Shown here in pieces: positions 5,021 through 64,000 of a stretch of 64,000 nt of DNA. Each line of letters opens with the position of its first letter. Position 1 is the stretch's first letter. Made by a program: the position numbers and the translations under genes. The DNA is taken from IMG/VR virus record IMGVR_UViG_3300027983_002383; one strand, given 5' to 3'. The notes beneath the pieces were generated by a model. The model was not told the DNA's origin. It did not search any database and worked only from the letters and a program-made list of their open reading frames with translations. Origin of the DNA: a virus.

Positions 5021-5548
5021 ATGGGTCAACATGATGATACAAAGAGAATGTTAGGATTGATTAGAGAATCAATTAGTAAAAAAAATAAGGTTAATAAAAT
5101 AATGTTACGTGAACAATCTGAGCCTATCGGAGGTAAAGAAGATTTGTCACCTGCGGATTATGCGGAAGAACAACAAAAATTCAGAAACACTGTTTCACCT
5201 AGAGTTAAATTCACCTCTTTTAAATTATACCCTAATTCACAAAATGTTGAATTTAGTGGTGAATTTACTGATAGTAAAATAGAATGGTTTTATTCTTTAG
5301 ATGACACTAGGGGTGTATATATAACTGGTACATTTATACAACTTAGTGATGAAGTATTAAAAACTCAAATACAGAAATTAGTTGCATATTATGAAACTTG
5401 GTCGGATGAATGGGCTACTAGAATCGCAGAAGAATATAAAAATGAAATTGTAGATGAAGAAAACGCTGAAGATGGACCAGTAAGTGTGAACTCACCAGAA
5501 TTTGGGGGTCAGTCTTTTTCTGAAGAAGATGAGATTGAAAATGTTTAA
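5021..5548 (+). CDS. hypothetical, probable virion/head-internal protein
   Basis: N-terminal LIRE and MLRE motifs; acidic tail. Confidence 0.55.
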   Translation: MGQHDDTKRMLGLIRESISKKNKVNKIMLREQSEPIGGKEDLSPADYAEEQQKFRNTVSPRVKFTSFKLYPNSQNVEFSGEFTDSKIEWFYSLDDTRGVYITGTFIQLSDEVLKTQIQKLVAYYETWSDEWATRIAEEYKNEIVDEENAEDGPVSVNSPEFGGQSFSEEDEIENV

Positions 5549-5909
5549 GAATGGTATCGACATAAAAATAATTTTTATCCTAGTTTTAGGTGTTGCGTTA
5601 GTATTATCAATTTTATTAAGACCTTCTAAAGATATTAACAAATATGAAGAAGAGATTAATTTATTAAATCATCAGAACGAAATGTTGTTGGGTAACAACG
5701 ATAGTATTTCATTACTAAACGAAAAACTTATAAAAGATATTATAGTTTTAGAAGAGAATGTTGAAGTTGTTAATGTTAAATTAAAATATTCCGACACACA
5801 AATAAAAAAATTAAAAAATAAAAAGAATGAAGTTTATTCTAATGTTATTATTATGGACGCTAATAGTGTCACCATCAATATCTCAGAATATCTCAAAAGG
5901 AGAGGTTAA
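5541..5909 (+). CDS. N-terminal TM + coiled coil, spanin-like subunit
   Basis: TM IIFILVLGVALVLSILL then heptad coiled coil; overlaps next gene; start moved to ATG 5541. Confidence 0.45.
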   Translation: MFKNGIDIKIIFILVLGVALVLSILLRPSKDINKYEEEINLLNHQNEMLLGNNDSISLLNEKLIKDIIVLEENVEVVNVKLKYSDTQIKKLKNKKNEVYSNVIIMDANSVTINISEYLKRRG

Positions 5910-6285
5910 AACAATCGTTAATGATAAAGGAGATACACTGGTATTGATGAATTTAGAAGATGCTAAGTTTATCCTTAGTGACTTGTTAGAATGTGAAATC
6001 ACCGATAGTCTTTTAAATGTATATATAGAAAGGGATAGTCTTTATCAGAGTAAAATTACTTTAAAAGATGAGATAATTGATAAGTTAAATTTACAAAACA
6101 CTAATTGTGAAAGTGTGGTTAATAATTTAAAAACTATTATTGATAACAAGGATAGTGTAATTACTTTAAAAGATGATACTATTAAACAACAAAAAAAAGA
6201 GATTAGAAAACAAAAGTTTTTTAAATTTTTAGGTTTAGCGGGGTCAGTAATATTACCCATTATAACTTTATTAATATTGATATAG
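5827..6285 (+). CDS. signal peptide + coiled coil + C-terminal TM, spanin-like partner
   Basis: Hydrophobic N-terminus, coiled coil, C-terminal FLGLAGSVILPIITLLILI; 83-nt overlap with upstream gene. Confidence 0.4.
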   Translation: MKFILMLLLWTLIVSPSISQNISKGEVKTIVNDKGDTLVLMNLEDAKFILSDLLECEITDSLLNVYIERDSLYQSKITLKDEIIDKLNLQNTNCESVVNNLKTIIDNKDSVITLKDDTIKQQKKEIRKQKFFKFLGLAGSVILPIITLLILI

Positions 6286-6304
6286 TTTTTTTATTGAAAT
6301 GTTA

Positions 6305-6312
6305 ATATTTAT
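6305..6312 (+). promoter_or_regulatory. ATATTTAT motif, putative late promoter
   Basis: Intergenic, 7 nt before ATG of a leader-bearing gene; same placement at many operon starts. Confidence 0.5.
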
Positions 6313-6319
6313 ATAGTAT

Positions 6320-6580
6320 ATGGATAATAAAAGACTTAAACAAATCATTACAGAATCTTTAACTAAAACAGATGAAGCCAAAATTGGCGCAATGATTAGA
6401 AAAGAAATTAAAGATGTTTTTGGTAGTGATTTAGAAAATAAAGTCTTAAAAATCTTAGAAAAAGAACTTAAAGGTACAAAGTTTAGAAAAAAAATTGTAG
6501 AAATTAATAAAGATGTTCTTGTACAATTACATAAAGAATTGTGGATGAGAAGACAATTTTGGTTAACCGCATTAAAATGA
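6320..6580 (+). CDS. hypothetical protein with IITE leader
   Basis: MDNKRLKQIITES. Confidence 0.7.
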   Translation: MDNKRLKQIITESLTKTDEAKIGAMIRKEIKDVFGSDLENKVLKILEKELKGTKFRKKIVEINKDVLVQLHKELWMRRQFWLTALK

Positions 6581-7668: not shown

Positions 7669-7685
7669 TAATATCTAATTTTTAG

Positions 7686-7693: not shown

Positions 7694-7706
7694 AAAAAAA
7701 ACAAAG

Positions 7707-8621: not shown

Positions 8622-9395
8622 ATGAGTTTAAATTTACAAAACATTTTAACAGAATCCATATTAGATGATTTGACTATATCTAAATTAGATAAGGTTACAT
8701 TAAAGGTTTTTAATGTGATTAAAGATGATAAGTTTTATTATACTGGTCAGGATAAGGCATGGGATATGTCAGATGGACAACGCATTGTGAAAGCTGCTGA
8801 AATGTTAAAAATAGGTGATTATGACTATCTCTATAGTGTCTATGATTTTTATAACACATATAGTGATATATTATTTAAAGATGTTCCCAGTGAGATACCA
8901 AAAAAAAAGGTACCATTTACTGGTGAATACGAACACATTTTAGGTGAAAAACTATTACAATATTTTCACTATTATTATAATGATAAAACAATTTATTCGA
9001 ATGAAACTGGTGAATTTATTTGTGGTGTAATTACTGGTGATATGGATGAGGCAATAATGGAAGAAATGTATAGTGTTGAGGTTTATAACCTTACCACACA
9101 AACCCACATATTTGTCAATATGTTCCCAACTTCAAAACAACCTAATAAGTTAGGTTGGGACTATCTAAGTATGGACGATGATTTAAGTGAATTTATCCCA
9201 GGATATAGAGGTATTGTTGATATTCCCTACGAAGAAACGATAGATAACGGATATTTTGATATTGATTTCCCTAAAGATATGAGTGATGAATCATTAAAAA
9301 AATATTTTGATGATATAATAAAGGTGGTAATAAAAGAAATGATAATCCCTAATAATGATTTAATGTTGGATTTCATATCCTCAGATACAAATTAA
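8622..9395 (+). CDS. acidic hypothetical protein with ILTE leader
   Basis: MSLNLQNILTES; ATATTTAT at 8609. Confidence 0.7.
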   Translation: MSLNLQNILTESILDDLTISKLDKVTLKVFNVIKDDKFYYTGQDKAWDMSDGQRIVKAAEMLKIGDYDYLYSVYDFYNTYSDILFKDVPSEIPKKKVPFTGEYEHILGEKLLQYFHYYYNDKTIYSNETGEFICGVITGDMDEAIMEEMYSVEVYNLTTQTHIFVNMFPTSKQPNKLGWDYLSMDDDLSEFIPGYRGIVDIPYEETIDNGYFDIDFPKDMSDESLKKYFDDIIKVVIKEMIIPNNDLMLDFISSDTN

Positions 9396-9407: not shown

Positions 9408-10619
9408 ATGTTATTAAAAAAGGGGGATAGTGGTCCAGATGTTAGAGAATTACAAACATTATTAGATGATAATGGTTTTTGGACATATTATACAATTACG
9501 GAATATTTTGGGACAGTTACTGAAACATCAGTTAAAAATTTCCAATTCTCAAAACAAATAAAAGTAGATGGTATAGTTGGTAATACAACATATAGTTGTC
9601 TAATAAATGGTGTTAAAAATGATATTATGATAAAAAAAGGAGACAGAGGTAATAAAGTAACAGAAGTTCAACGGATGTTAGGTATTACCACAGACGGTAT
9701 ATTTGGTTCAGGTACGGAATCCTCAGTGAAGGTATTCCAATTAGATAATGGGTTGTTAGTTGACGGTATTGTGGGCGCAAAAACATATGAGACATTAGTA
9801 AACAAAACATTGGGAGATAGTTTTGATAATATAATCGATGTAGATACAGACAGAACCGATTTTGATGATTCTGAAGACACTGATGATAAATTAAATTATT
9901 TAGGTTCTTATACAACAGAAGATGGTTTAGAAATAGATAGGGCTTATTTGGATGGTGATGAATATGTTAAGGATTATGGTAAGATACAACCAGAAAACTT
10001 CTTCATACATCACACCGCTGGATGGAACAACCCATACAATACTATTAATAGTTGGAATAAGGATAAAAGAGGTCGTGTGGCGACACAATATTGTATTGGT
10101 GGGACTAGTACTAAAGTTGGTAGTTACGGTGATGACAAATACAATGGTCAAGTTGTTGAGTGTTTTCCTGATAACTATATAGGATGGCACTTAGGGAAAG
10201 TTGGTAACTTTAATATGTCTAAATACTCTTCAGCAGTTGAGATTAACAACTTTGGTTATGTAACTAAGAGAGATGGTAAATATTACACCTATATCAATAG
10301 TGAGGTACCAGAAAGTATGGTGTGTGATTTAGGTTACGAGTTCAGAGGTCACCAGTATTGGCACGCATATACCCCAAAACAAATAGAATCTTTAAGATTA
10401 TTGATAAATCATACTAAACGTTTATACCCTAATATTGATATGTCCGCTGGGTTACCACAACTATTAAAAGATGGTGTACACCCTAAAGATGCTTTTGGGT
10501 TTAATGAAGACGCTTATTATGGTAGAATCAAAGGGTTGTGGACTCACACTAATGTTAGAAAAGATAAGTTTGATTGTTTCCCACAAACTGAACTAGTAGA
10601 ATTATTAAAATCGTTATAA
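9408..10619 (+). CDS. endolysin/lysin: two peptidoglycan-binding domains + N-acetylmuramoyl-L-alanine amidase
   Basis: LKKGD.G..V.ELQ / DGIVG..T repeats; FIHHTAG, GWH, VEI, THTNV..DKFDCFP. Confidence 0.88.
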   Translation: MLLKKGDSGPDVRELQTLLDDNGFWTYYTITEYFGTVTETSVKNFQFSKQIKVDGIVGNTTYSCLINGVKNDIMIKKGDRGNKVTEVQRMLGITTDGIFGSGTESSVKVFQLDNGLLVDGIVGAKTYETLVNKTLGDSFDNIIDVDTDRTDFDDSEDTDDKLNYLGSYTTEDGLEIDRAYLDGDEYVKDYGKIQPENFFIHHTAGWNNPYNTINSWNKDKRGRVATQYCIGGTSTKVGSYGDDKYNGQVVECFPDNYIGWHLGKVGNFNMSKYSSAVEINNFGYVTKRDGKYYTYINSEVPESMVCDLGYEFRGHQYWHAYTPKQIESLRLLINHTKRLYPNIDMSAGLPQLLKDGVHPKDAFGFNEDAYYGRIKGLWTHTNVRKDKFDCFPQTELVELLKSL

Positions 10620-11797: not shown

Positions 11798-11800
11798 TAA

Positions 11801-12641: not shown

Positions 12642-12695
12642 ACTATTTATTTTATTAAAATTTTTATGATATTTATTAATATAATAATAGTAAAA

Positions 12696-13607
12696 ATGAA
12701 AGTAATAGTAAATAGAAAACAATATGAAAAGGTAATAACAGAGTCTAAAGGATACTCCAAAAACGTGGAAAAGTGGGCGGATTATGTGACAGATGAGATA
12801 CTACCTTTAATAATGAAACAAGATATTGAGGAGGACGTATACATTTTAAAGAAATTATCTTTAAAATTAAAAGGTGAGGGGTTCTATGAAGATATCCCTA
12901 TTGATAGTGTTATAGTGACTGTTATTATTAATGATAGTGTAGATGACGAAGCTTCAGTAGATATGTCTTATAACCCACATTGGACACAAATAGTGGGAAA
13001 TGAAGATGGTACTTACAATATTTTAGATGCTGAGTTTGATGTGGTATTAACAATACCTAAAGATAGAGAAAGTGTTAATTATGAGACACTATATTATTAT
13101 GTTTCATCATTTTTTTCGCATGAATTTATGCATTTAAACGAATGGGTTAAAAGATTTTTAGAAGACCCTAAAGAATTAAAGGGTTGTGAAGAGGTATATC
13201 AAAATGGTAATATTAATGGGGATGCTGTAGATAGAATTGGTTACATGTTATATGTTTCACTATCGTTTGAATTGAATTCATTTATTCAACAAGCTGGGAC
13301 TATGATATCTAAAAGAAATCCAGAAGATAATCAACAATTCATGACTTATCTAAAAGAATTGCCTATGTATACTTTCGCAGAAACTATGGTGAACTACGAC
13401 ATTAACACATATTTAGAAGAAATTAATAACTTACCTAAAGATAGAATTGTTGAATTGAATAAAATGATGTTATGTTATTATTATGAAGAAGGTAAGGTAC
13501 CTAAATTTAAACCTATTGAAAAATTCTTATCAGATATAGATAAACATTTTAAAATTAGGGGTGAAGGGTTAAAAAGAAAATTATTAAGATTAATTACTGT
13601 AGTATGA
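12696..13607 (+). CDS. leader-bearing protein with HExxH metalloprotease-like motif
   Basis: MKVIVNRKQYEKVITES leader; SHEFMH; ATATTTAT at 12669. Confidence 0.55.
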   Translation: MKVIVNRKQYEKVITESKGYSKNVEKWADYVTDEILPLIMKQDIEEDVYILKKLSLKLKGEGFYEDIPIDSVIVTVIINDSVDDEASVDMSYNPHWTQIVGNEDGTYNILDAEFDVVLTIPKDRESVNYETLYYYVSSFFSHEFMHLNEWVKRFLEDPKELKGCEEVYQNGNINGDAVDRIGYMLYVSLSFELNSFIQQAGTMISKRNPEDNQQFMTYLKELPMYTFAETMVNYDINTYLEEINNLPKDRIVELNKMMLCYYYEEGKVPKFKPIEKFLSDIDKHFKIRGEGLKRKLLRLITVV

Positions 13608-14446
13608 AAAGAATTATTTTAACAGAGAGTCAATATAAAAGATTGGTTAAAAAACCTTTAAATGAGCAAAATGTAATTTTTGATTCTGGATATGATTGGG
13701 AAGATGTGAAAACATTCCAGATGATAAACATTCTCGGAAGCCTAACAGATAGTATTTTTTCTAATTTCAATGAAAATTTATATGTCAAATCAATAGATGG
13801 GGATAAAGTAGTTATCGACTTTGAAAAGTATGATGAGATAAAACGAGATGAAATAAAAAAATACATAATAGATGAATTTAATAGAGAAGTTACTTTTACA
13901 GATAACCCTGATGATAATATGGATGATGAGGGTAATATAGATTTTAGTTTTGATAGTGAACCTCTTGATGATGAAGAAAAAGAAATAAATGTAAACATAG
14001 ACACCAATTACAGTGACGATACAATGGGGTTCAAAACAGGTGGGGTAGACAGCCGACTAGCTATGGTTGGTGGTACGGGTAACAACTGGAATGGGTCGAT
14101 GCCTAGAGCATTATCAATAGCTAAAATGATCCATAAAGAATTTAATGTGGTACCCTCTTCACAAAAACGAAGAAAAAAACAAACAGAAAATGGGTCAACA
14201 TCTCAACACTACTTCAAAAACTTTGATTCATACGCGGTGGATTTACCAACTGGTACAGTCAAAAAGAGTTCATCGAAAGATAATAAAGGAGATAAAATGT
14301 TCAATATGATAGTAGACGTTTTAGGTCAACCAAATACCACATCAGGTAAATGGTTAAATATTATTTACGATGGTTATAAGTATAATATCGGATGGAGAGT
14401 AAAAGATCACTATAACCATATACATGTTGGTGTTAAAAAGAATTGA
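13604..14446 (+). CDS. leader-bearing protein with C-terminal M15/Hedgehog-fold peptidase-like domain
   Basis: MKRIILTESQYKRLVKKPLNE leader; SQH...AVD...HYNHIHV. Confidence 0.55.
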   Translation: MKRIILTESQYKRLVKKPLNEQNVIFDSGYDWEDVKTFQMINILGSLTDSIFSNFNENLYVKSIDGDKVVIDFEKYDEIKRDEIKKYIIDEFNREVTFTDNPDDNMDDEGNIDFSFDSEPLDDEEKEINVNIDTNYSDDTMGFKTGGVDSRLAMVGGTGNNWNGSMPRALSIAKMIHKEFNVVPSSQKRRKKQTENGSTSQHYFKNFDSYAVDLPTGTVKKSSSKDNKGDKMFNMIVDVLGQPNTTSGKWLNIIYDGYKYNIGWRVKDHYNHIHVGVKKN

Positions 14447-16076: not shown

Positions 16077-16142
16077 CTAATTTAGTACCTCCTTAACAAT
16101 TCTATGTAGATCCGATTCTTTTAATCTAACTATTTTTTTCAT
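16077..16142 (-). CDS. leader-only minigene MKKIVRLKESDLHRIVKEVLN (21 aa)
   Basis: Hand-translated; preceded on its strand by ATATTTAT (plus 16162..16169); resembles the shared leader family. Confidence 0.55.
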   Translation of the reverse strand: MKKIVRLKESDLHRIVKEVLN

Positions 16143-38791: not shown

Positions 38792-38840
38792 ATGCTTACA
38801 CGATATTTATATATGGATAACAATTTAAAAGTTTTTATAT

Positions 38841-39107
38841 ATGAGAAAAGTAATACGAAAATTTATGAAATTTATAAGTGATATTTTAACTGAAGACAAG
38901 AAGGATAATAAGTATTCATCTAAAAAAACAATGGGAATAATATCGGGTGTACTAGTGTGTATAGCTTTTATAGGGGATGGGTTTCATTGGTTCACCATTA
39001 ATGAGAATTTATTTAGCTCTATGTTGATATTTTCCGCAACTATGTTAGGGGTATCTACCGTTAAAGCATTCGCAACCCCTAAATCAAAAGAAGAAAACAT
39101 AGGATAA
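38841..39107 (+). CDS. 2-TM membrane protein, holin-like
   Basis: YSSKK followed by two hydrophobic helices. Confidence 0.45.
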   Translation: MRKVIRKFMKFISDILTEDKKDNKYSSKKTMGIISGVLVCIAFIGDGFHWFTINENLFSSMLIFSATMLGVSTVKAFATPKSKEENIG

Positions 39108-40299: not shown

Positions 40300-40300
40300 T

Positions 40301-40870: not shown

Positions 40871-40889
40871 TAAGATATATAGTATAAAG

Positions 40890-41756
40890 ATGAAAATAAT
40901 AATAACAGAGGATCAATATAAGAACCTAATAACTGAATCTAATTTTGTATTTCCAATAGGGAATGATAATTTTAATGTGGGTTATGACTCACAAGGATTA
41001 GGTAGTGGTATATCACCAAAGGTATTAGACAGAGAAGGTTCTATACATAATTCAGATTATAAACGTGGTGACGCAGCTCATAAATCGAGGGGTGGTCATT
41101 TAGGTATTGATATTTTTGCGCCCAAAGGAACCCCATTAGTTTCTTGTGTTAATGGTGTAATATTTTCTATAGGTAGAAATAATGGTATTGGTGGGAACAC
41201 TGTCAACATTAAAGGTGATGATGGTAAAAATTACTATTATGCACATTTAAATAGTATAAATAACGAATTAGAAGAGGGTGAAGATATCACTATGGGTAAA
41301 TTTTTAGGAACAGTCGGTAATACGGGTAACGCTAGCGGTACTCACCCACATCTACACTTCTCAATTTATAAGGGGGATTATAGTAAAGGTACTATTGACC
41401 CATGGGATTATCTGAAATCAACTTTAGATAATGAAAACATCATCATTATCGATAAAGATGATGTTACAGAAAAGGTTGATGGGAGAGTAGTTACAGATGA
41501 AGTTTTTATCGATGATATTATAGATAATATGGATAATAGTGAATTAATTTCTTTGGGTAGTAAAGGTGATGGTGTAAAGGAGGTTCAAAGTATATTAATG
41601 GAATTAGGTTATGAATTATCAGAATATGGTGATGATGGGATATTCGGTAGTGAAACAATGGATGCGGTTAAAGATTTCCAAAGGGAAGAAGAGTTATCAC
41701 TGATTGATGGTATCATTGGTATTGAAACATCAACAATGTTGCATAAATTTATTTAA
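40890..41756 (+). CDS. leader + M23 peptidase + peptidoglycan-binding domain
   Basis: MKIIITEDQYKNLITES; HLGID, YYYAHL, G.VGNTG, HPHLHF; LGSKG.GV.EVQ...FQ...DGIIG.ET. Confidence 0.88.
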   Translation: MKIIITEDQYKNLITESNFVFPIGNDNFNVGYDSQGLGSGISPKVLDREGSIHNSDYKRGDAAHKSRGGHLGIDIFAPKGTPLVSCVNGVIFSIGRNNGIGGNTVNIKGDDGKNYYYAHLNSINNELEEGEDITMGKFLGTVGNTGNASGTHPHLHFSIYKGDYSKGTIDPWDYLKSTLDNENIIIIDKDDVTEKVDGRVVTDEVFIDDIIDNMDNSELISLGSKGDGVKEVQSILMELGYELSEYGDDGIFGSETMDAVKDFQREEELSLIDGIIGIETSTMLHKFI

Positions 41757-41775
41757 AAGATAAAAGACTATTAAT

Positions 41776-42195
41776 ATGAAAATAATAATAACAGAGGAAC
41801 AATATAAGAAGGTTTTACTAAAGGAATTTGGTGAAACCATTACTGACCCTAAAGAATGGTATGATCGTGTCTTAGAATGGGTAGACGATAGAAAAGAATT
41901 GAAGTTTGATAGTAATGAGGTTGAAGTTGTTGCTTACGATAGTAACGACATCTATTTAGGGTATTACGATAAAGAACAACAATTTGGGTTTGTAGTATCG
42001 GAATATGGTATTGGGGTAGAAGATGAATACGATGATGAAGAATATATTGATGAACAAGATAGTGGTGCACCCGAAAGTGGGTCTTCTACCAAGTGGGAAG
42101 ATATTGTATCATTAACTAGGGGACCTGCCAATACATTGGATAATAGTCCTTGGTCAGATAACCTTAATAGAGGTCCCGCTAACCAACTAACTTAA
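41776..42195 (+). CDS. leader-bearing acidic protein with RGPAN repeats
   Basis: MKIIITEEQYKKVLLKE; W...L.RGPAN twice at C-terminus. Confidence 0.75.
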   Translation: MKIIITEEQYKKVLLKEFGETITDPKEWYDRVLEWVDDRKELKFDSNEVEVVAYDSNDIYLGYYDKEQQFGFVVSEYGIGVEDEYDDEEYIDEQDSGAPESGSSTKWEDIVSLTRGPANTLDNSPWSDNLNRGPANQLT

Positions 42196-50518: not shown

Positions 50519-51598
50519 ATGAGTTTAAAATTTAAAGATATAATTACTGAGGATGACTTCCATAGTGTTAAAGGGGGTAAACTTAAACCTAAAGAAGAAA
50601 AACTTCTTAAAAATATTCATAACTATATTTTAGTGTCGTATTTTGACGATCAACAATTACCATCGGAGTTGTTGGATTTAACTGAATATTATGAGTTATA
50701 TTATAAAATATATGATTTTCTAATAGATACAATGTTATTTGATAGTGTAACCGCATCACACTTATTTAATTTATTCGTGTTAAATTATAATAGAGAAGGT
50801 GAGTATACGAACATTGAAGAAATTAGGACATTATCGCATGAAGATGAAATAGAGATGTTTGGTTGGCGGGTTATGGTTTTAGCTAAACACTTCAAAACTT
50901 TACCATTTATGGTTGAACGTTTAGATTTATCCCATTATGGTATACCTTCTTATGTTATAAATGGTAGGGATGAGTGGTACGCTTTCGGTAATCAAGCAGA
51001 TATTGATTATGCAGTAAGAGAGATGCTTGAACAGAGATGGTCTGAGAGAGAAGTTTTTAATGTGTATGGTGCGGAGGGTTACGTGGCTTATTGTAATGTT
51101 AGTGATACAGATAAAAGAATAATATCTAATGAAGATGCTGACCATTACGAATCTGAACAGGATCCTGAAGAAATTATTAATTATCTTAGACATAATAGGG
51201 AAAATGATAAGGATGATGCAATTGTGTTGGATTATGATGAAATGGTGGAAGAGTTGGAAGAGTCATCTACTGAAGATGAAAGCCATTATGAAGTAAGAAT
51301 AGATGAGATAGTTAACAATGGTAGAGAAAGGGTTAGAGAGATAATATATAATGTCACCTACACCACTTTAGAAAATAATTTAGAGGAGTATCTGACAGAG
51401 TTGGGTTACCTAATGGATGAAGGATCCTCACATGAACGATGGGAGAGATTACCCTCATGGATGACGTTTGATTGGAAAGAATTTATGGGTGATGAGATTC
51501 AACACTTTGATATCAATGAGTTATCTCCGTATGAAAATGTGGATGAGATTTATTCAGAGAATGGTGATATTTATTATATAGTACAAATAGATTATTAG
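50519..51598 (+). CDS. leader-bearing acidic protein, family B paralog 1
   Basis: MSLKFKDIITED; C-terminal Y...E....G..YYI. Confidence 0.75.
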   Translation: MSLKFKDIITEDDFHSVKGGKLKPKEEKLLKNIHNYILVSYFDDQQLPSELLDLTEYYELYYKIYDFLIDTMLFDSVTASHLFNLFVLNYNREGEYTNIEEIRTLSHEDEIEMFGWRVMVLAKHFKTLPFMVERLDLSHYGIPSYVINGRDEWYAFGNQADIDYAVREMLEQRWSEREVFNVYGAEGYVAYCNVSDTDKRIISNEDADHYESEQDPEEIINYLRHNRENDKDDAIVLDYDEMVEELEESSTEDESHYEVRIDEIVNNGRERVREIIYNVTYTTLENNLEEYLTELGYLMDEGSSHERWERLPSWMTFDWKEFMGDEIQHFDINELSPYENVDEIYSENGDIYYIVQIDY

Positions 51599-51599: not shown

Positions 51600-52775
51600 A
51601 TGAAACTATATAAAATATTGCAAGAACAAGAGGAGAAAGAATCACCAAAGGAGATTAGAAAGATAACTAATACCCATAAGAGGATGTTAAACGCTTTATC
51701 TCGGATGGATATTGATGATACCGAATACTCGGTTATATGGAAAGAACTTATAGATGTTTTCCAAATCAATGATATTGACCTAGTAACAGAAATAACTTAT
51801 TTATATCACGAATATAGTTATGTGTTTGATGAGGATGAGAAAGATAGTTATAAGGAGTTACCTGACGATGCTTTATCGGGGTTAATGGATATAACCGGGT
51901 TCGACAATGCACAGATTGCGTTATCAATAAATTTAAAAACACCACTTTTTTTAATTGAGGAAAGTAACTATGACCATTACGGGCTAAGTCAATACTATGA
52001 TTTAGTTGATGGTGGAATGTACGGTGTAGGAAATGAAGACGAAGTGCAATCTGCTATGTTAGAATGGGCACAATCCAGTTATGATAGTGAGGGGCTAGAT
52101 TATGTGAATAGAAATTATCTGGACCAATTTATAGAATTAAATGATGTATCTGATTTCGCAGAAGAGGATGTGGATAGTTTGTTAGATGATATGTCAGAAG
52201 AACATATTATCGAAGAAGCTGGTTACGATAAAGATCAAATGGTTGAACAAATGGAGTCTATGGAGAGTAGGATAAGTGATATAGTTGGTGAGTTGGAAAC
52301 TCTTAAAGATGAAATCGATGAAATTCAAGAGATGTTAGATGAATTGGAGGAAGAATCTGAAGAAGAGGAAGATATTTCCCAGACAGAAGAATATGTAGAT
52401 TTAAAGGGGTCACAAACTTCATTAATATATAAACGACAGGACTTTGATAGTGAAAAAGATAATTTAGAATCAGAAATGAGCGATTTAGAGACAGAAATAG
52501 ATGGTTTATTTGATACTGCTAAAGAGGAAGTTAGAACTAGTAGAATAGGTAATTTAATAGAGGCAATTGAAAATGAGGGTGTCGATTTTTTTATAAATGA
52601 TTTAGGTTATAGTTTAGAAGATGCAGTTAGATACTTTTGTGATTTTGATGAGGAAGGGTTTATTAGTGGTATGTCGACTGATAACGAAGCTAGTGACGTT
52701 TTAGCAAGTTATAATGGACAAGAAGATTATGAAAATGTAGATGGTGTATACTATTATATATATAGAACAGAATAA
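51600..52775 (+). CDS. leader-bearing acidic protein with coiled-coil insert, family B paralog 2
   Basis: MKLYKILQEQ; LASYNGQED.ENVDGVYYYIYRT. Confidence 0.75.
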   Translation: MKLYKILQEQEEKESPKEIRKITNTHKRMLNALSRMDIDDTEYSVIWKELIDVFQINDIDLVTEITYLYHEYSYVFDEDEKDSYKELPDDALSGLMDITGFDNAQIALSINLKTPLFLIEESNYDHYGLSQYYDLVDGGMYGVGNEDEVQSAMLEWAQSSYDSEGLDYVNRNYLDQFIELNDVSDFAEEDVDSLLDDMSEEHIIEEAGYDKDQMVEQMESMESRISDIVGELETLKDEIDEIQEMLDELEEESEEEEDISQTEEYVDLKGSQTSLIYKRQDFDSEKDNLESEMSDLETEIDGLFDTAKEEVRTSRIGNLIEAIENEGVDFFINDLGYSLEDAVRYFCDFDEEGFISGMSTDNEASDVLASYNGQEDYENVDGVYYYIYRTE

Positions 52776-52777: not shown

Positions 52778-53305
52778 ATGAAAATAAAATTAAGTAAAAA
52801 ACAATTTAAAAGATTATTAAACGAAATGCGGTTTGATGGTAAATCTACAGGTCTATTCTCGAATGAAGAACCTGAAGAAGTTAATGAATTTTTTGGTGGT
52901 AAAATAAAAGATAGGTGGTCTAATTTTTTAGTTGCAGCTAAAAGAGAAGGAAAAGAAACGGAGGTAGCATCAGAAATATTAAAACGACTATTAACTAAGA
53001 AAGAAGTTTCTAAAATAGAAAAAACCTTTCTAAAATCACAGGCAATGGATTTATTAAAAATTGTTGGTGTATTAGGTTTAGGTGCTGTCTCTGCTATAAT
53101 ACCCGTAACATTAGAAAAGATTTTAAATAAAAAAGGACTTTCAATACTACCTAAAAGTCAAGAAATACCCAAAGAGGACCCAAAAACTGGTGAAGATTTA
53201 ACGGGCGAATATTGGTCACCTGAACTCGAGCAAGATTTAGAAGCTTTTCACAATATAAATATAGAGGGTAATTTAGATTTAATAAAAACGAAACCGTTGA
53301 AATGA
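52778..53305 (+). CDS. leader-bearing protein with hydrophobic/amphipathic segment
   Basis: MKIKLSKKQFKRLLNE; LLKIVGVLGLGAVSAIIP. Confidence 0.75.
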   Translation: MKIKLSKKQFKRLLNEMRFDGKSTGLFSNEEPEEVNEFFGGKIKDRWSNFLVAAKREGKETEVASEILKRLLTKKEVSKIEKTFLKSQAMDLLKIVGVLGLGAVSAIIPVTLEKILNKKGLSILPKSQEIPKEDPKTGEDLTGEYWSPELEQDLEAFHNINIEGNLDLIKTKPLK

Positions 53306-54522
53306 AATTAAAACTAAGTGAAATATTAAACGAATCTAAAGAACCTGTTAAAATAAGTAGGTTCGAAGAAAGCTCGCTTTATTATATGTGTGATAATAAA
53401 GTTGACCCAACGGACACTAAAAAGGTATATAATTTCTTAGTGGGTCAATTGTATTTGAAAGATGAAACGGAAATAATTAAAATAATGAAACTTTATTATT
53501 TTAATTTTCCCTATGGTAAGATAATGTCGGGTGAATGTGAAGAAGTTGAAAAAACGTTTCATTTACCGTTAGATGAGAAATATGTTTACGAACATTTAGC
53601 ACTATCCCAATGGTTAGGGGTAAATCCCTATTTGATTACTTTAATCAATGAACCAATCCATGGTGCTTTAGGTGAGTTTGAAGTTGATTTAGAAGGTCAT
53701 ACTTATAAGGTTGGTACTGCAGATGACTCTCGTTCCGCAGCAAGGAAAACGACTAAGTATATAATTGAGACTGAGGGGTATGGTTATTTTGATAGTGACT
53801 GGATTTCTTCGTATGTTTCTATAGTTGATGAGTCTGCGGAATATAACGCTGAACAACGCGGAAAAGAGGAATCTAAAGGTATGACTGATGATTACCTTAG
53901 AAATGATGTAGACTGGAGCGCTGAGTATGATTATTTAAAAGAGGATAAAGAAGGTGAAGAAGAAGAGTTAACATATAGAGTTAATAAAGTTAAAAAAATT
54001 AAATTTAAGTTAGAAAAGTTAGATAAAGAGAAAAAAATAATAGAGAGAGAAATTGAAACATTAGGGTTTTATTTAGATTACGATGTTGATGATGAGTATT
54101 CTAATGATTATAATATTGATATTAGTGAAATGACAAATACCTTAAATGAATTAGAGACTACTATCTACGAATACAATTATTATATTGATGAGTCAGAAAA
54201 AGAAATTGGTAACATAAAAGAAATTATTGATGACATATTAGATGAAATGTCTGAATTCGAAGGTGTTAAGTTATTGGAGAGATGGATGGTGAATTTCATT
54301 GAAATGGTGGTTGAAGAGTATTCAGACAATCCAATGGACTATGTGCATGACTCTGGTATGAATGTAGATGAAGCGGAATTAGAGGGGTTAATAGAAGTAG
54401 ATGATGAAAGTTTAATTAATGACTATATTAGTGAACTTGGTACAGTGGTCGCTGATTACGATGGGGTCCAAAACATCACACTTTTTAATGGTATATATTA
54501 TTATATATTTAGAACACATTAA
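53302..54522 (+). CDS. leader-bearing acidic protein with coiled-coil insert, family B paralog 3
   Basis: MKLKLSEILNES; VADYDGVQN...NGIYYYIFRT. Confidence 0.75.
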   Translation: MKLKLSEILNESKEPVKISRFEESSLYYMCDNKVDPTDTKKVYNFLVGQLYLKDETEIIKIMKLYYFNFPYGKIMSGECEEVEKTFHLPLDEKYVYEHLALSQWLGVNPYLITLINEPIHGALGEFEVDLEGHTYKVGTADDSRSAARKTTKYIIETEGYGYFDSDWISSYVSIVDESAEYNAEQRGKEESKGMTDDYLRNDVDWSAEYDYLKEDKEGEEEELTYRVNKVKKIKFKLEKLDKEKKIIEREIETLGFYLDYDVDDEYSNDYNIDISEMTNTLNELETTIYEYNYYIDESEKEIGNIKEIIDDILDEMSEFEGVKLLERWMVNFIEMVVEEYSDNPMDYVHDSGMNVDEAELEGLIEVDDESLINDYISELGTVVADYDGVQNITLFNGIYYYIFRTH

Positions 54523-55134: not shown

Positions 55135-55488
55135 ATGCAAAATTATGTAATAGATGAAGTAATAGAAATTTTATGTGATGTAGATAAAATTTTAACTGTT
55201 AAGTTTAGATTAAACGAAGATGAAACTACAACCCATAGAGAAATTATAGATAGTGAATATTATAGTTGGTGTGAGGAAAACCATTACATCAAGGGTGAAG
55301 TGGAAGAAGATTTAGAAGAAGATTTTGATGATGACACTGAAGAAGAATTAGACTACAATGGGTTTCATTTCGACATAGAAATATGGGAAAGTAATTATAG
55401 TGACGTGAATATCATAATTGACTATATCTACGACAATTACCACAATAAGTTAGATTTACCTGAAACAAAAGATAGTTTATTTCACTAA
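55135..55488 (+). CDS. acidic hypothetical protein
   Basis: ORF; ATATTTAT at 55111. Confidence 0.65.
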   Translation: MQNYVIDEVIEILCDVDKILTVKFRLNEDETTTHREIIDSEYYSWCEENHYIKGEVEEDLEEDFDDDTEEELDYNGFHFDIEIWESNYSDVNIIIDYIYDNYHNKLDLPETKDSLFH

Positions 55489-57288
55489 ATTCACCTTAAC
55501 ATTAACATTATTTTCCATTCCCCATTCTTGGAACGATGAGGCGTGTGGTTCCCTATCCTCCCACATCTCTATAGAGTTGACTTGAGGGTACCTACTCATT
55601 AATGTGGTGATAGTATTTAATTTACTACTTAAAGTGTTACCATCCTCTTTATAATGATATTCACTGAAAAATATATTATTCATAGATAATAGTTCCTTAA
55701 TTTGATCATCTTGGTGTGGTAATCTCCCTGTTAACATTATAACAAGTGTGTTTGGATCTTTCATCTCTAATTTATAGTCCTCCACAGTAGAGACTATAGG
55801 TTCAATATTAAATACAGCATCATCTAATGATTCTGGTTTACTCCACCACCCTATATGGGGATATTTCTTATCATAAAAATCTTCCCATTCTTTTTTCCCT
55901 TCTTCTGGGTGTGGTGTTCTCATTAATGTACCATCAAAATCGAAGATAGATATTTTAGTAATATCTTCTACAGATTCTTTTAATAATCTTTTATTATATT
56001 TAACACTCTCATTTAAGTCTAACACACCACCTAAAACCCAATCAGATAGGTTATCCCATGGTATATTATGGTTCTTACCATTATAGGTTATTGTTATTTT
56101 TTTATTTTTATAGTCTACATTTCCAGTATGAAAAGATATTTTATTATCTCTACTTCTATAGGAACCAGTTATGTGTGATGATATTTCCACAAACCCCAAC
56201 TTTTCTATAATGCTAAAAAACACTTCTCTATCTTTAATAAGTTCTTTAATGTCAACACCACCATCTTCACTAATTTTATTTATCACCCTTTCTAAAGAAT
56301 CGTTTAAATCACTAATGACCGTCTGACTACCATCATCAGATAACCAATTGTCATAATAACCGTCATAAAGGTTAACGTCAGGTTGTATCTCTAACTCTTT
56401 TAAATCAGAAAGATTTATCACATCTTCGTTTTTAACTATATATAATAAATCATTGTATGGTATGGTAATACACATTCTACCACATGTACATGAACCGTCA
56501 ACGTTGTATTTTATTTCAGAATTGTAAGCTTCTATAGTTCCAGCATTTCTAGCTTCAGTAAGTTCCATACTTATGGTTGATAAGAATTCATTCGTTATAT
56601 CTTCATAATGATTTTGTGGTAGTGTTGTAGATAAGAATTTATTAATTTCCTCATTCTCAATATTAACCCCACCCTTACCTGGCCAAACATTTTTACCGAC
56701 TAACAACGCAATTGTTTCGAAATGTTCTTTTGTTGTATCATTAACAAAAGAATCCATATAATGTAATTCACCCTCATCCACCTCATCATAATAACCACCA
56801 TAATGACTATTGGCATGATGGTAAAAATGTAGTGAGTCATCATCTAAACCAGAAAAATGTTCTTCCCATTGTTCATTACTTAAATTTAATTCAGCTCCTT
56901 CATTATTCCATTCTATCGATGGTGTATTGCCTCTGTAAACACCACCACAACCCGTATGAAACCAATCACCATAAAGTTTTTCTAACTCATCGTTGTGGTT
57001 ATCAACCATATCCTCAAGGAACTTCTCTCTTTCAGGTTTTATTAATAGAGACATTTTTGTTACGAACTTTATTAAAGGAGTCTCACCTCTATCTATCTCC
57101 ATTTCTTTATAGTCGACACCTTTTTTCTGATTAAAATACCACAACCTATAAATGTCTATTGCCTCATCTTGGGTTAACCCCATATGTGTGACAAGTTCTT
57201 TCATCGCACTATTTTTACTGTTAGTATGTTTAACAATATCATCTAAATACCTTAGTGAGCTTAACTCGAACCTACTTAATTTACCCAT
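55477..57288 (-). CDS. acidic virion-like domain fused via LNES/LLKES linker to HAD phosphatase (Swiss-Army-Knife RNA-repair type)
   Basis: LDLNESVKYNKRLLKES then IFDFDGTL.RTP, WW..P.SL, MLTGR, WEDR..H. Confidence 0.7.
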   Translation of the reverse strand: MGKLSRFELSSLRYLDDIVKHTNSKNSAMKELVTHMGLTQDEAIDIYRLWYFNQKKGVDYKEMEIDRGETPLIKFVTKMSLLIKPEREKFLEDMVDNHNDELEKLYGDWFHTGCGGVYRGNTPSIEWNNEGAELNLSNEQWEEHFSGLDDDSLHFYHHANSHYGGYYDEVDEGELHYMDSFVNDTTKEHFETIALLVGKNVWPGKGGVNIENEEINKFLSTTLPQNHYEDITNEFLSTISMELTEARNAGTIEAYNSEIKYNVDGSCTCGRMCITIPYNDLLYIVKNEDVINLSDLKELEIQPDVNLYDGYYDNWLSDDGSQTVISDLNDSLERVINKISEDGGVDIKELIKDREVFFSIIEKLGFVEISSHITGSYRSRDNKISFHTGNVDYKNKKITITYNGKNHNIPWDNLSDWVLGGVLDLNESVKYNKRLLKESVEDITKISIFDFDGTLMRTPHPEEGKKEWEDFYDKKYPHIGWWSKPESLDDAVFNIEPIVSTVEDYKLEMKDPNTLVIMLTGRLPHQDDQIKELLSMNNIFFSEYHYKEDGNTLSSKLNTITTLMSRYPQVNSIEMWEDREPHASSFQEWGMENNVNVKVNLVK

Positions 57289-60107: not shown

Positions 60108-60833
60108 TCAATCTAATTTCTCAACAGATAATAGGGTTGACCCCTTACCTTTATTTTTTAAAGTGACTTCTTCTTCGTGTGGATAATAGATGTTATTAAA
60201 TAAGGTATTGAAAACATCTATTTGTTCCTTTTTCGCAATCAACTTTAATAAGGTAGGGTCACCCTCACCACCACCATAAATAGAACCTTTATTATAATGG
60301 TTATCAAGTAATTCTCTTTTATTAGTTGTGTAATGGTCACCAATAAATTCCTCATCAATATTGTTATCATCGTCAATATATAATAAACGATATAAGATAA
60401 TCTCATTGGGTAGGTTATTTAACCAATACAGCAATTCAATTAAGCTCTCTTCGTATAATTCTTGATCCATCCCCATTTCAGTGTAAGCTTGATATAATAG
60501 GGTTTTTTCTCTATTAGATATGGTAATCTTTTTATTTTTCATTTGGGATTCATTAAGGTTACCTTTAGAACTTACTTTATCGTTAATAGTTCTAACAAAT
60601 TCTTTCCATATGTATTCCATTTCATTATCATCTTTTATCCCATACGTATTTTTACAATGATTGAAGAATGAATCATGGAAGAAAGTATTTTTACTAGTTG
60701 GGAAATGGAAAAGGGACATCGAATTCCCTGAAGTGAAAGGTGGTTTTATTGTCCCCATTGACCCCTCACTATAATCTATTACTGTCTCATCTACAATCTG
60801 AGCAACTACCTTATCTAAGAAATTATTATTCAT
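60108..60833 (-). CDS. repeat module + LNES linker + putative ADP-ribosyltransferase-fold domain
   Basis: Module FLDKVV..IV.ET...HCK..YG; then LYR, HYTT, PHEEEVTL (R-S-E-like). Confidence 0.45.
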   Translation of the reverse strand: MNNNFLDKVVAQIVDETVIDYSEGSMGTIKPPFTSGNSMSLFHFPTSKNTFFHDSFFNHCKNTYGIKDDNEMEYIWKEFVRTINDKVSSKGNLNESQMKNKKITISNREKTLLYQAYTEMGMDQELYEESLIELLYWLNNLPNEIILYRLLYIDDDNNIDEEFIGDHYTTNKRELLDNHYNKGSIYGGGEGDPTLLKLIAKKEQIDVFNTLFNNIYYPHEEEVTLKNKGKGSTLLSVEKLD

Positions 60834-60925
60834 ATTATATCACCTTCTTCATAAGTTGCATACTTCTCTTGTGCAAAACTTGTCATACCCAGCATCAGGG
60901 TTATAGCTAATGTTAACTTTTTCAT
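60830..60925 (-). pseudogene. signal-peptide-only remnant ORF (31 aa)
   Basis: MKKLTLAITLMLGMTSFAQEKYATYEEGDII stop. Confidence 0.4.
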
Positions 60926-60926
60926 T

Positions 60927-61574
60927 TTAATTGTATTTATTGTTATTTATTGTTATTTTATTAATAATATGTATAGTAATAGTGTTGTGTGAGTCTACTT
61001 TAGGGGCATTATTATCTTCAAAATAACCTATACAATTAGTAGAGTTGTTTACACAATTAACCTCTGTCTTATTACATTTATAGCACCAAAGTTCATCATC
61101 AGTATAGTCAACATCAACTTCATCAATACCACCTAGCTTACAATACTTCTCTATGAATGCTTGTGATGGTTTAGGTAATGGTTTTTTGTACATATGAACA
61201 TCCTCTTCAACTATCTCATTAGTGTGAAGTTTAGGGTCAGTAGATGCTATGATTTTCTTACAATCTACATATACATCACTAAAATTATTTTGTGGTACTG
61301 TTGCGTCAGAATGAATAAACCAATCACCTTCTTTAATCTCTTCACCTGTTGTGAAGTATAGGTGTTGAGGTTGCCACATAGTGTTACAATTAGCCACACC
61401 TTCTCTTCCATTCGCTGATTGTAACATACCATCTTTAGTTCTTTTAGATAACATTGAACATTTATCAATGAACTCTAAAAACTCAGACTTTGCTTTTGCA
61501 TCTAGTATTAATCCTGATTTCTTTGAAACATACATGTAAACGTTTCCTTGTGATTTACCTGGCTTAATTACCAC
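60927..61574 (-). CDS. phage hypothetical protein, start uncertain
   Basis: QHLYFT...EIKEGDW, CKKIIASTD, LP.PSQ.FIEKY pattern; GTG start or internal ATG. Confidence 0.6.
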   Translation of the reverse strand: MVIKPGKSQGNVYMYVSKKSGLILDAKAKSEFLEFIDKCSMLSKRTKDGMLQSANGREGVANCNTMWQPQHLYFTTGEEIKEGDWFIHSDATVPQNNFSDVYVDCKKIIASTDPKLHTNEIVEEDVHMYKKPLPKPSQAFIEKYCKLGGIDEVDVDYTDDELWCYKCNKTEVNCVNNSTNCIGYFEDNNAPKVDSHNTITIHIINKITINNNKYN

Positions 61575-63130
61575 GTTGATTTAGGTAATTGATTTCTCAT
61601 TATATTATGTATTAATTCTTTATATTCTTCAAAAACAACCCAAGCTTCCTCTTTAGATAAACCATAATTTTCCATTACCCCATGAATGAAGATAACTTTC
61701 GGTACTGCTTCATACCACATATGGGGGATTTTATTATCATTATAGGTAACAAATGGGTATTTTACCCTTATATGTGGGTGACCATCTACTTTTATTATGT
61801 CAGTAGACTTAACCATATAATCAACCATTTTAGGTATAAACTTTTTAACACTACCTGTGGATTTTGTGGACTCACTGACATTACCTTTAGAGTTAAATTT
61901 ATCTCTAAAAGTTTTTTTATACTCTGACCATACATATTCTATCTCTTCTTTATCCTTTAACCCATATATATCTTTACAATGTATTTTAAAATAATAAGGT
62001 GGAATTTCTATGGGGTGAAGTTTGTCATAAGAGATGACGAATGGTGAGATAGTGAATAGGGTTTTTATCATTTCCCTCTTATAACATATCTCAGTTTCAC
62101 TAACTAGTTGATCAACTATCTTATGTAGAAACTTTTTATCAACAGACTCATTTAGGTAATCCAAACCCAATCTTCTAAGATGTGGGGGGAGATTTTCTTT
62201 TTTAGATAACACCATATTAATAATGTGTTCATCATACCTACCCCAAAATAACTCATCAATTTCTTTATGATTTAACCCGTAGATATTTTCTAATTGTTCA
62301 TATAAACATTCAGGTATACCTATGAAATATGGTGCAACACTTCCCCAACTTATCATGACTTGAATATTTTTACATATACCGCCATATAAATCAATACTAC
62401 TAAATGATGAATCTCTCCATTTAGTATTCTCAACTAGTTCGTTATAAACAAAGTTTAATAAATCTTCTTGACTACCACGACTATATATACCCTCATTAAC
62501 ATTAGTTTTATTGTGGTTAGATAATTTGGTAACCCAATCCTCCTCAACATTACATATTTGTAATGTTTTTAAATTATTTAATACAGGTAATCTTTGTTCT
62601 AGTATTGTGCGTATAATATCTCTTATTTCAGAGATAACTTCCCACCCGAAATCACTATTACTTGTCACCTCCCTTATTGTCCATTCTCTACCCTCATCAT
62701 CCCTTTCCGGTCCATATAAATAAACTGTACCATTTACATCTACGTCAACATCAATGTCAATTAAATCCCCGACACCACTAAATAAATTAGATTCGTCTTT
62801 ATCGAATATATCATTTGAGAGATAAACATTGTCAACTTCAAAAGTAAATTCATAATTACCTGTACCGATCCATTTAGGGTTGCTAGTGTCAAATATTTCA
62901 CCCTTTAGTGAATTAATAACACTTACTTCGTAATCAACAATTTCAAGATACTCCTCTTTAGATATGGAGTATATATTTTTAAGATCCACTCTACTTAATA
63001 ATGGGTCACTTTTTATGTGGTCCATTATTTTAGAAGTGTATTCAGATTCTGTTAAAATATTACTTTTATTAACACCACTAATTTTAGAGTTTAATCTTTC
63101 GTTCTTCAGTATTTTACTATAATTACTCAT
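61568..63130 (-). CDS. modular polyprotein-like protein with three ~80-aa repeat modules
   Basis: ILTES leader; linkers NVNEG, YLNES, NVSES; modules end in YGL..E....W/F. Confidence 0.7.
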   Translation of the reverse strand: MSNYSKILKNERLNSKISGVNKSNILTESEYTSKIMDHIKSDPLLSRVDLKNIYSISKEEYLEIVDYEVSVINSLKGEIFDTSNPKWIGTGNYEFTFEVDNVYLSNDIFDKDESNLFSGVGDLIDIDVDVDVNGTVYLYGPERDDEGREWTIREVTSNSDFGWEVISEIRDIIRTILEQRLPVLNNLKTLQICNVEEDWVTKLSNHNKTNVNEGIYSRGSQEDLLNFVYNELVENTKWRDSSFSSIDLYGGICKNIQVMISWGSVAPYFIGIPECLYEQLENIYGLNHKEIDELFWGRYDEHIINMVLSKKENLPPHLRRLGLDYLNESVDKKFLHKIVDQLVSETEICYKREMIKTLFTISPFVISYDKLHPIEIPPYYFKIHCKDIYGLKDKEEIEYVWSEYKKTFRDKFNSKGNVSESTKSTGSVKKFIPKMVDYMVKSTDIIKVDGHPHIRVKYPFVTYNDNKIPHMWYEAVPKVIFIHGVMENYGLSKEEAWVVFEEYKELIHNIMRNQLPKSTW

Positions 63131-63150
63131 TAACACTTTATTATATTGAT

Positions 63151-63162
63151 ATAAATATTTAT
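63151..63162. promoter_or_regulatory. palindromic ATAAATATTTAT, double late-type motif
   Basis: Perfect 12-bp palindrome at divergent junction. Confidence 0.45.
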
Positions 63163-63457
63163 AATTATAATAAAGTGAAAAATATTATGGATAAGTTTAA
63201 TTTAATTTCAACACACCCAATAAAAAATCAGATTTAGGGTTTCATGGAAACCTCTTCGGGGGTAAATTACTGACTATGTAAAAAATAATTTACTATGAAT
63301 TATAGAAAATTATGGGAAGGTAATTCACCATAACAACACATCAAAAAAGGGCTTATGATAGAAAATACTATTACCACTATTTTAACAATAAAGTTATTTT
63401 TTAAAGGTGAGTTAAAGTTCATAAAATTTAGATGATATGATTTAAAATTTTATTTAA

Positions 63458-63489
63458 TTTGGTTTATCCAATAAAATAGCTTATATTTG
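63458..63489 (+). promoter_or_regulatory. Bacteroidota-type promoter
   Basis: TTTG-20-TATATTTG. Confidence 0.7.
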
Positions 63490-63655
63490 TTTTATAAAAT
63501 TAATCGTTTTGTACTATACAATGAAGAATATTGAATAAAATTTTGAGGAGGACACGAATGTCTCTTACAAAAACACTTATGATTTTTAGGTATACTATGA
63601 GAGGTTTAAGGTGGACTGAATTAAAAATTACTAAAAAAGTAACTTATTAATAATT

Positions 63656-64000
63656 ATGAAACTATGATAACTAAATTCCATCACAGTAAAGATATACTAA
63701 AAGAAGATACTTTAACTGTTAATCAAACAAACATATCTTTCGATGATCTTTATTCTAGTTTATGGGTTAAGATGTTGAATAGAGTATGTAGAAAATATAC
63801 TATAGATAATGATAAGGCTCAAGACTATTGTCAAAATGGATTTATAAAAGTATATAACAACATCCATAAATATGTTGGTAAAGGTTCATTAGAGGGTTGG
63901 GTGTCACGAGTAATAAGTAATAGTATCTTAGATGAGTTAAGGGGAGGTAGGGTCGAAATAACTGATGGTGGATTAGAGGGTTTTGATTTAACAAGTATCA
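63656..64000 (+). CDS. ECF-type sigma-70 factor, 3'-truncated by window edge (not in ORF track)
   Basis: FDDLY...W.KM...VCRKY..D.DKAQDYCQNGFIKVY.NIHKY.GKGSLEGWV.RVI.N.ILDELR (region 2). Confidence 0.85.

Follow-up and report, generated by a model that had tools for sequence, protein, structure and literature searches.

Why do proteins that otherwise have nothing in common begin with the same few residues? The question is raised by a 64,000-nucleotide stretch of IMG/VR virus record IMGVR_UViG_3300027983_002383 (hereafter the window), in which eight open reading frames (ORFs), starting at positions 12696, 13604, 39107, 39703, 40301, 40890, 41776 and 52778, open with a common 16-residue leader. 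An earlier reading of this DNA (the original prediction) had proposed that such leaders are a portable address, by which diverse enzymes are packaged into the phage head and then released by the head protease in the manner of phage T4. Because the leader ends in the cut site of a T4-type head protease, head loading of the proteins is its most likely role, and on comparative grounds we consider it reasonably probable that it is a capsid-loading, protease-removed propeptide, i.e., a longer, two-part variant of the capsid-targeting propeptide of T4.

The leader follows the two-part consensus MKI[IK][IL]TE-x-QYK-x-[LI]-x(1-2)-E. We built a profile of it (A1) in which 39 of the 44 sequences come from other phages, so that the profile is independent of the window. 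Using hmmsearch, A1 retrieved exactly the eight ORF starts listed above, with scores of 20.7-34.7 bits and each at the Met of the ORF, the next-best match in any frame of the window reaching 5.9 bits. The eight positions originally proposed are thus recovered by pattern and profile alike, and the suggested profile scan was also clear-cut in related DNA, where 284 of 296 matches over ~1.3 Mb begin at a Met. The core Q[YF][KE][KRN][LVI] occurs nine times in the six-frame translation of the window, eight of them as residues 9-11 of the tagged, MK-starting ORFs. The bodies of the three tandem paralogues at 39107-40870 are 30-31% identical, and the invariant columns of their alignment (A3) are almost confined to the tag. 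All 18 other protein clusters retrieved for the M23 protein at 40890 align across its tagged first 40 residues; a protein search with residues 1-40 of this protein returned orthologues only and was unusable for counting tag carriers.

How widely the tag is spread was assessed by searching IMG/VR with a degenerate nucleotide pattern that encodes MKIx[LI]TExQYK. This search revealed at least 120 loci and at least 133 ORFs with the leader, and all 133 matches listed are ORF starts. Among these, 129 usable tagged proteins fall into at least 42 clusters without BLAST similarity outside the tag; the family counts given here rest on these 129 proteins from the matches listed, and the true totals are at least as high. 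In bacterial and archaeal genomes amounting to 596 Gb, the same pattern was found at only four places, namely, two short contigs from metagenome-assembled genomes and two phage contigs of a single-cell assembly that bears the label Prochlorococcus. This virtual absence from cellular genomes is unlike what is expected of a Sec, Tat or lipoprotein signal, and such a signal is ruled out, since it would have a positively charged n-region and then an unbroken hydrophobic core of about 7-15 residues, whereas E7, Q9, K11 and K/R12 leave no such core. The carriers among the matches listed are all fragments or complete genomes of T4-like phages of roughly 250-330 kb: carrier contigs of 30-180 kb are 10-60% complete according to CheckV, and the complete carriers measure 257-322 kb and contain 8-18 tagged ORFs each. 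The carrier clade is made up of uncultivated phages, whose hosts are probably Bacteroidota. Among GenBank phages, no carrier was retrieved by tblastn with tag-bearing proteins or the 24-residue leader, and megablast with the window gave no match. In the literature, searches for the leader string and for capsid targeting sequences in metagenomes returned no description of this tag.

We then asked at which level the leader is conserved. In a set of 95 distinct leader DNAs, synonymous codons are used as they are in the bodies, with Ser8 encoded by both AGY and TCN, and Q9, Y10, K11 and T6-E7 are nearly invariant, as is I-T-E at residues 5-7. Given that synonymous sites vary as they do in the bodies, selection acts on the peptide and not on the DNA, and this synonymous-site test led us to reject a DNA-level function of the leader. 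The three tandem paralogues have near-identical leader DNA, which reflects recent duplication or gene conversion rather than a general DNA element. The end of the leader is conserved as well: 33 of the 42 families among the matches listed have an [IL]xE ending at residues 14-19, compared to 7% of bodies and 11% of other N-termini (p = 3e-30). In T4, an [IL]xE falls among the first 10 residues of each of Alt (MELITE), gp67, gp68, gp21, gp22 and gp24.

The corresponding protease was sought with PF03420 (Peptidase_S77, the T4 gp21 family) at the Pfam cut-off. It is present in all five complete carriers. Of the 63 carrier contigs overall, 22 have it, a share that roughly matches their CheckV completeness. 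No HK97-type S78 protease was found in the carriers searched. Two features of these phages are in line with T4-type processing: the propeptide of the clade's major capsid protein (MCP) aligns with the delta domain of T4 gp23 and keeps FL[IL]NE followed by A, and the clade's proteases have retained GIL[VI]E close to the N-terminus, much like LLIE in T4 gp21. A complex prediction for the S77 protease of contig C9 (one of the two phage contigs from the assembly labelled Prochlorococcus) with an 83-amino-acid (aa) tagged protein scored 0.00 and was counted neither for nor against binding. In AlphaFold2 models of the three-paralogue family, the bodies reach confidence values (pLDDT) of 85-90, while residues 1-20 stay below 50 and are detached from the body, with a short amphipathic helix at residues 7-16. 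A Foldseek search with the model of the 39703 family found no match in PDB or BFVD.

Under closer inspection, particular tagged families lie inside the head module. In the complete carrier G002, terL is followed by a 694-aa gene and portal, then by genes of 238 aa, 148 aa (tagged) and 155 aa and by the S77 protease; next come an acidic 508-aa scaffold-like gene and a gp23-type MCP. Six further loci show this arrangement as well. The commonest tagged family sits between portal and protease (L140, L041, L055, L059, L064, L073 and L104; one locus has two tagged copies), the same place that is occupied in T4 by the prohead-core genes 67 and 68. Further tagged ORFs are located directly before terL or between protease and scaffold. 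Synteny links contig C9 and its companion C14 to the window at 37-40 kb and to 52778. A seven-gene unit of C9, with five full tags and one short form of the tag, abuts terL-portal-protease-scaffold-MCP, and the homologue of 52778, at C9 39996, is the first gene of the array that precedes terL. Only specific families show this placement. There is no enrichment at head modules overall, as ~13% of loci contain head genes, which is near chance for genomes of this size.

Another observation concerns a promoter-like motif, ATATTTAT, which occurs 42 times in the window against an expectation of 26 +/- 5 and lies directly upstream of 12696, 38841 (the head of the 39107-42195 unit), 50519 and 51600. 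The original prediction had most leader-bearing genes behind this motif. This is true at the level of units, since all eight tagged genes belong to motif-headed units (39 of 104 genes do so overall), but few have the motif directly upstream, and the eight genes represent only three independent units. The motif core TATTTAT stands ahead of terL, portal, protease, scaffold and MCP in G002. On C9, it is found ahead of terL, portal, protease and the tagged unit, but scaffold and MCP lack it. With respect to the proposed enrichment of leaders among late genes, the core thus stands before most head genes of G002 and C9 and before all three tagged units of the window, but the motif is AT-rich and the units are few. 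As there are only three of them, we take the motif as suggestive, and not as proof, of late expression of the tagged units together with the head genes.

Shorter leaders and internal linkers extend the pattern beyond the eight full tags. The motif [IL][ILV][TN]E[SDGEN] is common to the proteins at 6320, 8622, 38841, 50519, 53302 and 61568-63130 (- strand), and it is enriched in the first 30 residues over protein interiors 17-fold in the window and 24-fold in the complete carrier G004. Accordingly, the short forms originally listed at 6320, 8622, 50519, 53302 and in 61568-63130 hold up, whereas 51600 is a weak case, as is 5021. The internal linkers claimed for 55477-57288 and 60108-63130 are real: LDLNES-VKYNKRLLKES stands before a HAD domain in the former, and LNES, VSES and VNEG form joints in the latter. 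A link between linkers and leaders comes from the domain at the C-terminus of 60108-60833, which may resemble ADP-ribosyltransferases (ART-like). Its stand-alone 149-aa homologues start with T4-like leaders of 10 residues such as MISFIKLLNE, ending in LLNE or LLKE, and its fused copies show ..NLNES, VNES or ITES within a few residues of the boundary at which the stand-alone copies have their leaders. As the two coincide, leader and linker mark essentially one domain boundary. One body can occur both stand-alone and fused via a tag, and large proteins of the relatives contain two internal tags each, with L[EK]ES before each.

From these observations, a mechanism can be proposed by analogy with the T4 capsid-targeting sequence (CTS). 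The tag would bind the scaffolding core, and the tagged protein would thereby be built into the prohead. The prohead protease of the gp21 family (S77) would then remove the tag after the Glu of [IL]-x-E, that is, after the ITE at residue 7 and the L-x-E at residues 15-16, and short leaders of ~11 residues (with an I[IL]TE or ILNE end) and internal ..LNES.. linkers would be cut by the same enzyme. The freed protein would stay in the head and be ejected with the DNA, while very acidic ones might alternatively be degraded like core proteins. Core binding, cleavage and the presence of the tagged proteins in virions are steps that we infer from the T4 precedent.

How closely does this resemble what is known? 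The CTS of T4 reads MKTYQEFIAE. Its ten residues suffice for packaging and are removed by gp21 after L/I-x-E, and the T4 internal proteins are diverse, with the CTS as their sole common feature (PMC9026906, PMC3012670); the CTS has already been proposed as a general device of T4-like phages for loading varied proteins (PMC9026906). Like it, the leader studied here is a short N-terminal peptide on unrelated proteins, with an MK start and an [IL]-x-E end, in phages that encode a gp21-family protease and a portal-core-protease-scaffold-MCP module; the ART-like cargo recalls Alt, and the tagged genes are mostly scattered, as are the internal-protein genes and alt in T4. Unlike it, the leader has 16 residues and two [IL]xE sites instead of 10 residues, is carried by 8-18 genes in each genome and by at least 42 cargo families instead of about four, is also found between modules, precedes many acidic proteins and is known from sequence alone. 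Only the format, MK start and [IL]xE end, is common to both, which is why we claim analogy and not homology; that the tag works like a CTS is, as stated above, reasonably probable, membership by homology being no part of this claim. The polymorphic internal-protein loci of T-even phages likewise consist of fast-evolving, diverse proteins with a common leader only (PMC3012670), and the three tandem paralogues of the window resemble them; leader and clade (uncultivated, ~30% GC, huge genomes) are different, and the repertoire here is far larger. In phiKZ, 201phi2-1 and SPN3US, proteases of the gp175 family cut many head proteins after Glu, often at several sites (PMC9026906). This multi-site processing resembles the multi-module proteins with ..NES.. 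joints, but those phages lack a single common leader and differ in P3 preference, whereas the carriers have a T4-type S77 protease and a gp23-type MCP.

Taken together, the capsid-targeting interpretation draws on the strictly N-terminal position of the leader, selection on the peptide, the [IL]xE end, the S77 protease in complete carriers, the positions in the head module, the promoter-like motif, the detached N-terminus of the models and the equivalence of linker and leader. The T4-style packaging and release originally proposed agrees with all comparative tests that were run and is partly supported. Several points weigh against it. The leader has no alignable similarity to the T4 CTS, the T4 head proteins have no match to the tagged proteins, and the tag is absent from the nearest S77-bearing relatives in GenBank, i.e., Flavobacterium phage immuto, Microcystis phage Mel-JY01 and the uncultured LR756508 and LR756511. 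The [IL]xE motif carries little information, and the promoter argument within the window depends on three units and an AT-rich motif. Most tagged genes of the complete genomes lie at scattered sites outside the head module (in G002, 1 of 18 lies at the module), and the 95.6-kb contig containing the window has no head genes, so that the protease and head module of this particular genome are inferred from its relatives. Many cargo proteins are very acidic (isoelectric point, pI, 4.1-5.3), in contrast to the basic T4 internal proteins IPII and IPIII. Finally, wall-binding or transmembrane (TM) parts in the cargo, along with a holin-like first gene, would suit a role at the envelope too.

These points leave room for other destinations. 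The tag could serve for docking elsewhere in the virion or in an ejection complex (neck, tail, baseplate or trans-envelope conduit), where it would plug varied modules into one receptor protein with no need for cleavage. That the tag is portable and N-terminal only, that peptidoglycan hydrolases and TM-bearing modules are typical of tail-associated or ejection proteins and that tagged genes adjoin terL and head genes, although they also lie elsewhere, would all fit; yet simple docking would account neither for the conserved [IL]xE at the end of the tag nor for linkers being equivalent to leaders, and no tagged family has a significant match to a tail PHROG, and we therefore regard it as rather unlikely. 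Alternatively, the tag might sort proteins to the cell envelope or a lysis or membrane complex late in infection, as a phage-specific export or assembly signal. The unit at 38841-42195, which starts with the holin-like 88-aa protein (mean hydropathy 1.86 over 19 residues) and includes an M23 peptidase with a PG-binding domain, invites this idea, as do relatives in which a lysozyme with LysM and a thioredoxin are tagged and internal tags are preceded by a TM-like module. Still, the tag contains charged residues (E7, K11, K/R12) and lacks a hydrophobic core, most of the cargo is acidic and has no assigned function, the window's untagged Amidase_2 protein with two PG_binding_1 domains is a more ordinary endolysin candidate, and the placement between portal and protease would find no explanation, all of which makes envelope sorting distinctly improbable.

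It is tempting to speculate about something less familiar, namely, a phage-specific signal, of a kind undescribed for phages, that sorts wall-degrading or redox enzymes and TM-anchored modules to the host envelope or to an ejection or lysis complex, or, if the tag is a capsid address, a universal plug-and-cut junction for polyprotein cargo, which its two cut sites and its use between modules would provide; we consider this unlikely. Very unlikely, finally, is a leader without any sorting role, be it a recombination or gene-conversion junction for cassette swapping or a favourable translation start. The almost identical leader DNA of the tandem paralogues, the mini-ORFs consisting of a tag only (window 16077-16142; L101) and bodies found both stand-alone and tag-fused are what a junction would leave behind, but the 95 leader DNAs vary synonymously as the bodies do around nearly invariant peptide residues, and a translation start leaves the conservation out to residue 16 unexplained.

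If the leader is indeed a capsid-loading propeptide, sequence by itself would reveal which proteins are carried in the heads, and probably injected, by the huge aquatic phages of a large uncultivated group, a set comprising dozens of families without assigned function in addition to wall hydrolases, a thioredoxin, a metalloprotease-like protein and an ART-like domain. Candidate proteins for host takeover and anti-defence would become directly accessible, engineering would gain a second, longer capsid-loading peptide, and there would be support for capsid-targeting leaders as a general device of the T4 superfamily, an idea that so far comes from T-even phages.

With respect to the cargo itself, the enzymes originally named were confirmed in part. 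Pfam supports the M23 peptidase with PG_binding_1 and the HAD_SAK_1 domain, while the HExxH and M15-like proteins are recognisable by their motifs only: the 12696-13607 protein had no match in Pfam, PHROGs or PDB, and the 13604-14446 protein had none in Pfam. Sequence searches of Pfam, PHROGs and PDB returned nothing for most of the cargo; recognisable in the relatives are a lysozyme with or without LysM and, in C9, a thioredoxin. The assignment of the C-terminal domain of 60108-60833 as ART-like is weakly supported by its predicted fold. ADP-ribosyltransferases of the R-S-E class combine the ART fold with Arg, Ser/Thr and Glu-x-Glu motifs; here, LYR, DHY[ST] and HE[QE]E are invariant in 15 homologues, and the best hit of the fold search is DraT (E = 0.014, probability 0.97, TM-score 0.38, a weak match), with ParT, TreX, cholera toxin A1 and PltA in PDB all at E above 0.1. 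The acidic protein at 41776-42195 has orthologues in L027, L036, L065, L091 and L096. Relatives of the 52778 module head arrays of tagged genes or are fused upstream of further tagged modules, and similar modules occur in L035, L012 and L085. The coordinates of all these features are compiled in the Table.

Table. Leader-bearing, short-form, linker-containing and tag-only ORFs of the window (scores are those of profile A1; assignments are predictions)
Position	Strand	Product	Leader or linker	Score (bits)	Other features
12696-13607	+	tagged 303-aa protein	MKVIVNRKQYEKVITE	25.0	HEFMH (HExxH) motif; ATATTTAT at 12669-12676
13604-14446	+	tagged 280-aa protein	MKR-IILTESQYKRL...PLNE, offset by one residue	20.7	LAS/M15-like H-x5-D and HIH
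39107-39706, 39703-40299, 40301-40870	+	three tandem paralogues	MKIRLTEGQYKRLLSE, identical in all three	29.6-29.7	
40890-41756	+	M23 peptidase with PG_binding_1	MKIIITEDQYKNLITE, then S	34.7	PF01551, 7.7e-22; PF01471, 1.2e-12
41776-42195	+	very acidic 139-aa protein	MKIIITEEQYKKVLLKE, then F	28.6	pI 4.1
52778-53305	+	tagged 175-aa module	MKIKLSKKQFKRLLNE, then M	25.3	conserved MRFDGKSTGLF stretch; TM-like segment (hydropathy 2.19)
6320-6580	+	short-form protein	MDNKRLKQIITE, then S		ATATTTAT upstream
8622-9395	+	acidic 257-aa protein	short form MSLNLQNILTE, then S		ATATTTAT upstream
38841-39107	+	88-aa protein, first gene of tagged unit	short form ...ISDILTED		hydrophobic segments; ATATTTAT at 38803-38810
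50519-51598	+	acidic protein	short form MSLKFKDIITE, then D		ATATTTAT upstream (feature from 50491)
51600-52775	+	acidic protein	weak short form		ATATTTAT upstream
53302-54522	+	acidic 406-aa protein	short form MKLKLSEILNE, then S		
55477-57288	-	603-aa protein	linker LDLNES-VKYNKRLLKES (residues 423-438, nt 55975-56022)		linker before HAD_SAK_1; ATATTTAT upstream
61568-63130	-	beads-on-a-string gene	...ILTES at residue 25; joints VNEG, LNES, VSES		joints between ~90-residue modules
60108-60833	-	beads-on-a-string gene	NLNES		one ~90-aa module, then NLNES, then ART-like domain
16077-16142	-	21-codon mini-ORF	variant leader only (MKKIVRLKESDLHRIVKEVLN-stop)		own ATATTTAT motif

The ~90-residue module of the beads-on-a-string genes follows the pattern ..FL.KV..QIV.ET...C...YG[LI]...E...W..[YF]. 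Two homologues of 60108-63130, P0033 and P0043, consist solely of 2-3 copies of this module, joined by INES or ISES. The mini-ORF at 16077-16142 (- strand) belongs to a second leader variant, MKKI[IV].L.ESD[LI]..[IA]V.., that is also present at C9 37325-37804 (L154) and at 145763-146494 of G004, and in L101 a 17-codon tag-only ORF is located directly before terL.

Several observations were made on the carrier genomes. Contigs C9 and C14 (L149, L150, L154 and L155) of 'Prochlorococcus sp. AG-409-L21' (G019) are huge-phage DNA syntenic with the window, so that the Prochlorococcus label of the assembly may not indicate the phage host. C14 further contains two notable ORFs, one of them lipoprotein-like and the other 798 aa long with a signal-like segment at its N-terminus. 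G004 (IMGVR_UViG_3300032296_003307; L125-L138), which measures 268.7 kb and is rated 100% complete, contains two divergent T4-type head modules, located at 25-35 kb and at 228-238 kb. Both comprise terL, portal, S77 protease and MCP, and the two sets show 29-44% and 66-74% identity to their G002 counterparts; either the assembly is chimeric or the phage has two sets of head genes. The portal ORF of G002 (L140 4874-7969) is 1031 aa long and has HNH-endonuclease PHROG matches at residues 229-412, between its portal-homologous parts, suggesting an intein-like or homing-endonuclease insertion.

The window itself spans ~31.7-95.65 kb of a metagenomic contig of 95,654 bp (ENA k141_1336112), and an exact search of IMG/VR did not return it. 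It has ~30% GC, and nearly all of its genes are on the + strand, among them genes for an SbcC/gp46-like protein, a DNA methyltransferase and a DUF2828 protein common to KVP40-type phages. It encodes three peptidoglycan hydrolases, namely, an Amidase_2 protein at 4399-5016, an Amidase_2 protein with two PG_binding_1 domains at 9408-10619 and the tagged M23 protein with PG_binding_1 at 40890-41756. A 264-aa sigma-70-like protein, with the Pfam domains Sigma70_r1_2, r2 and r4 on the identical gene of the contig, is encoded at 2008-2802 (+ strand); this phage-encoded sigma factor might read one of the window's promoter types.

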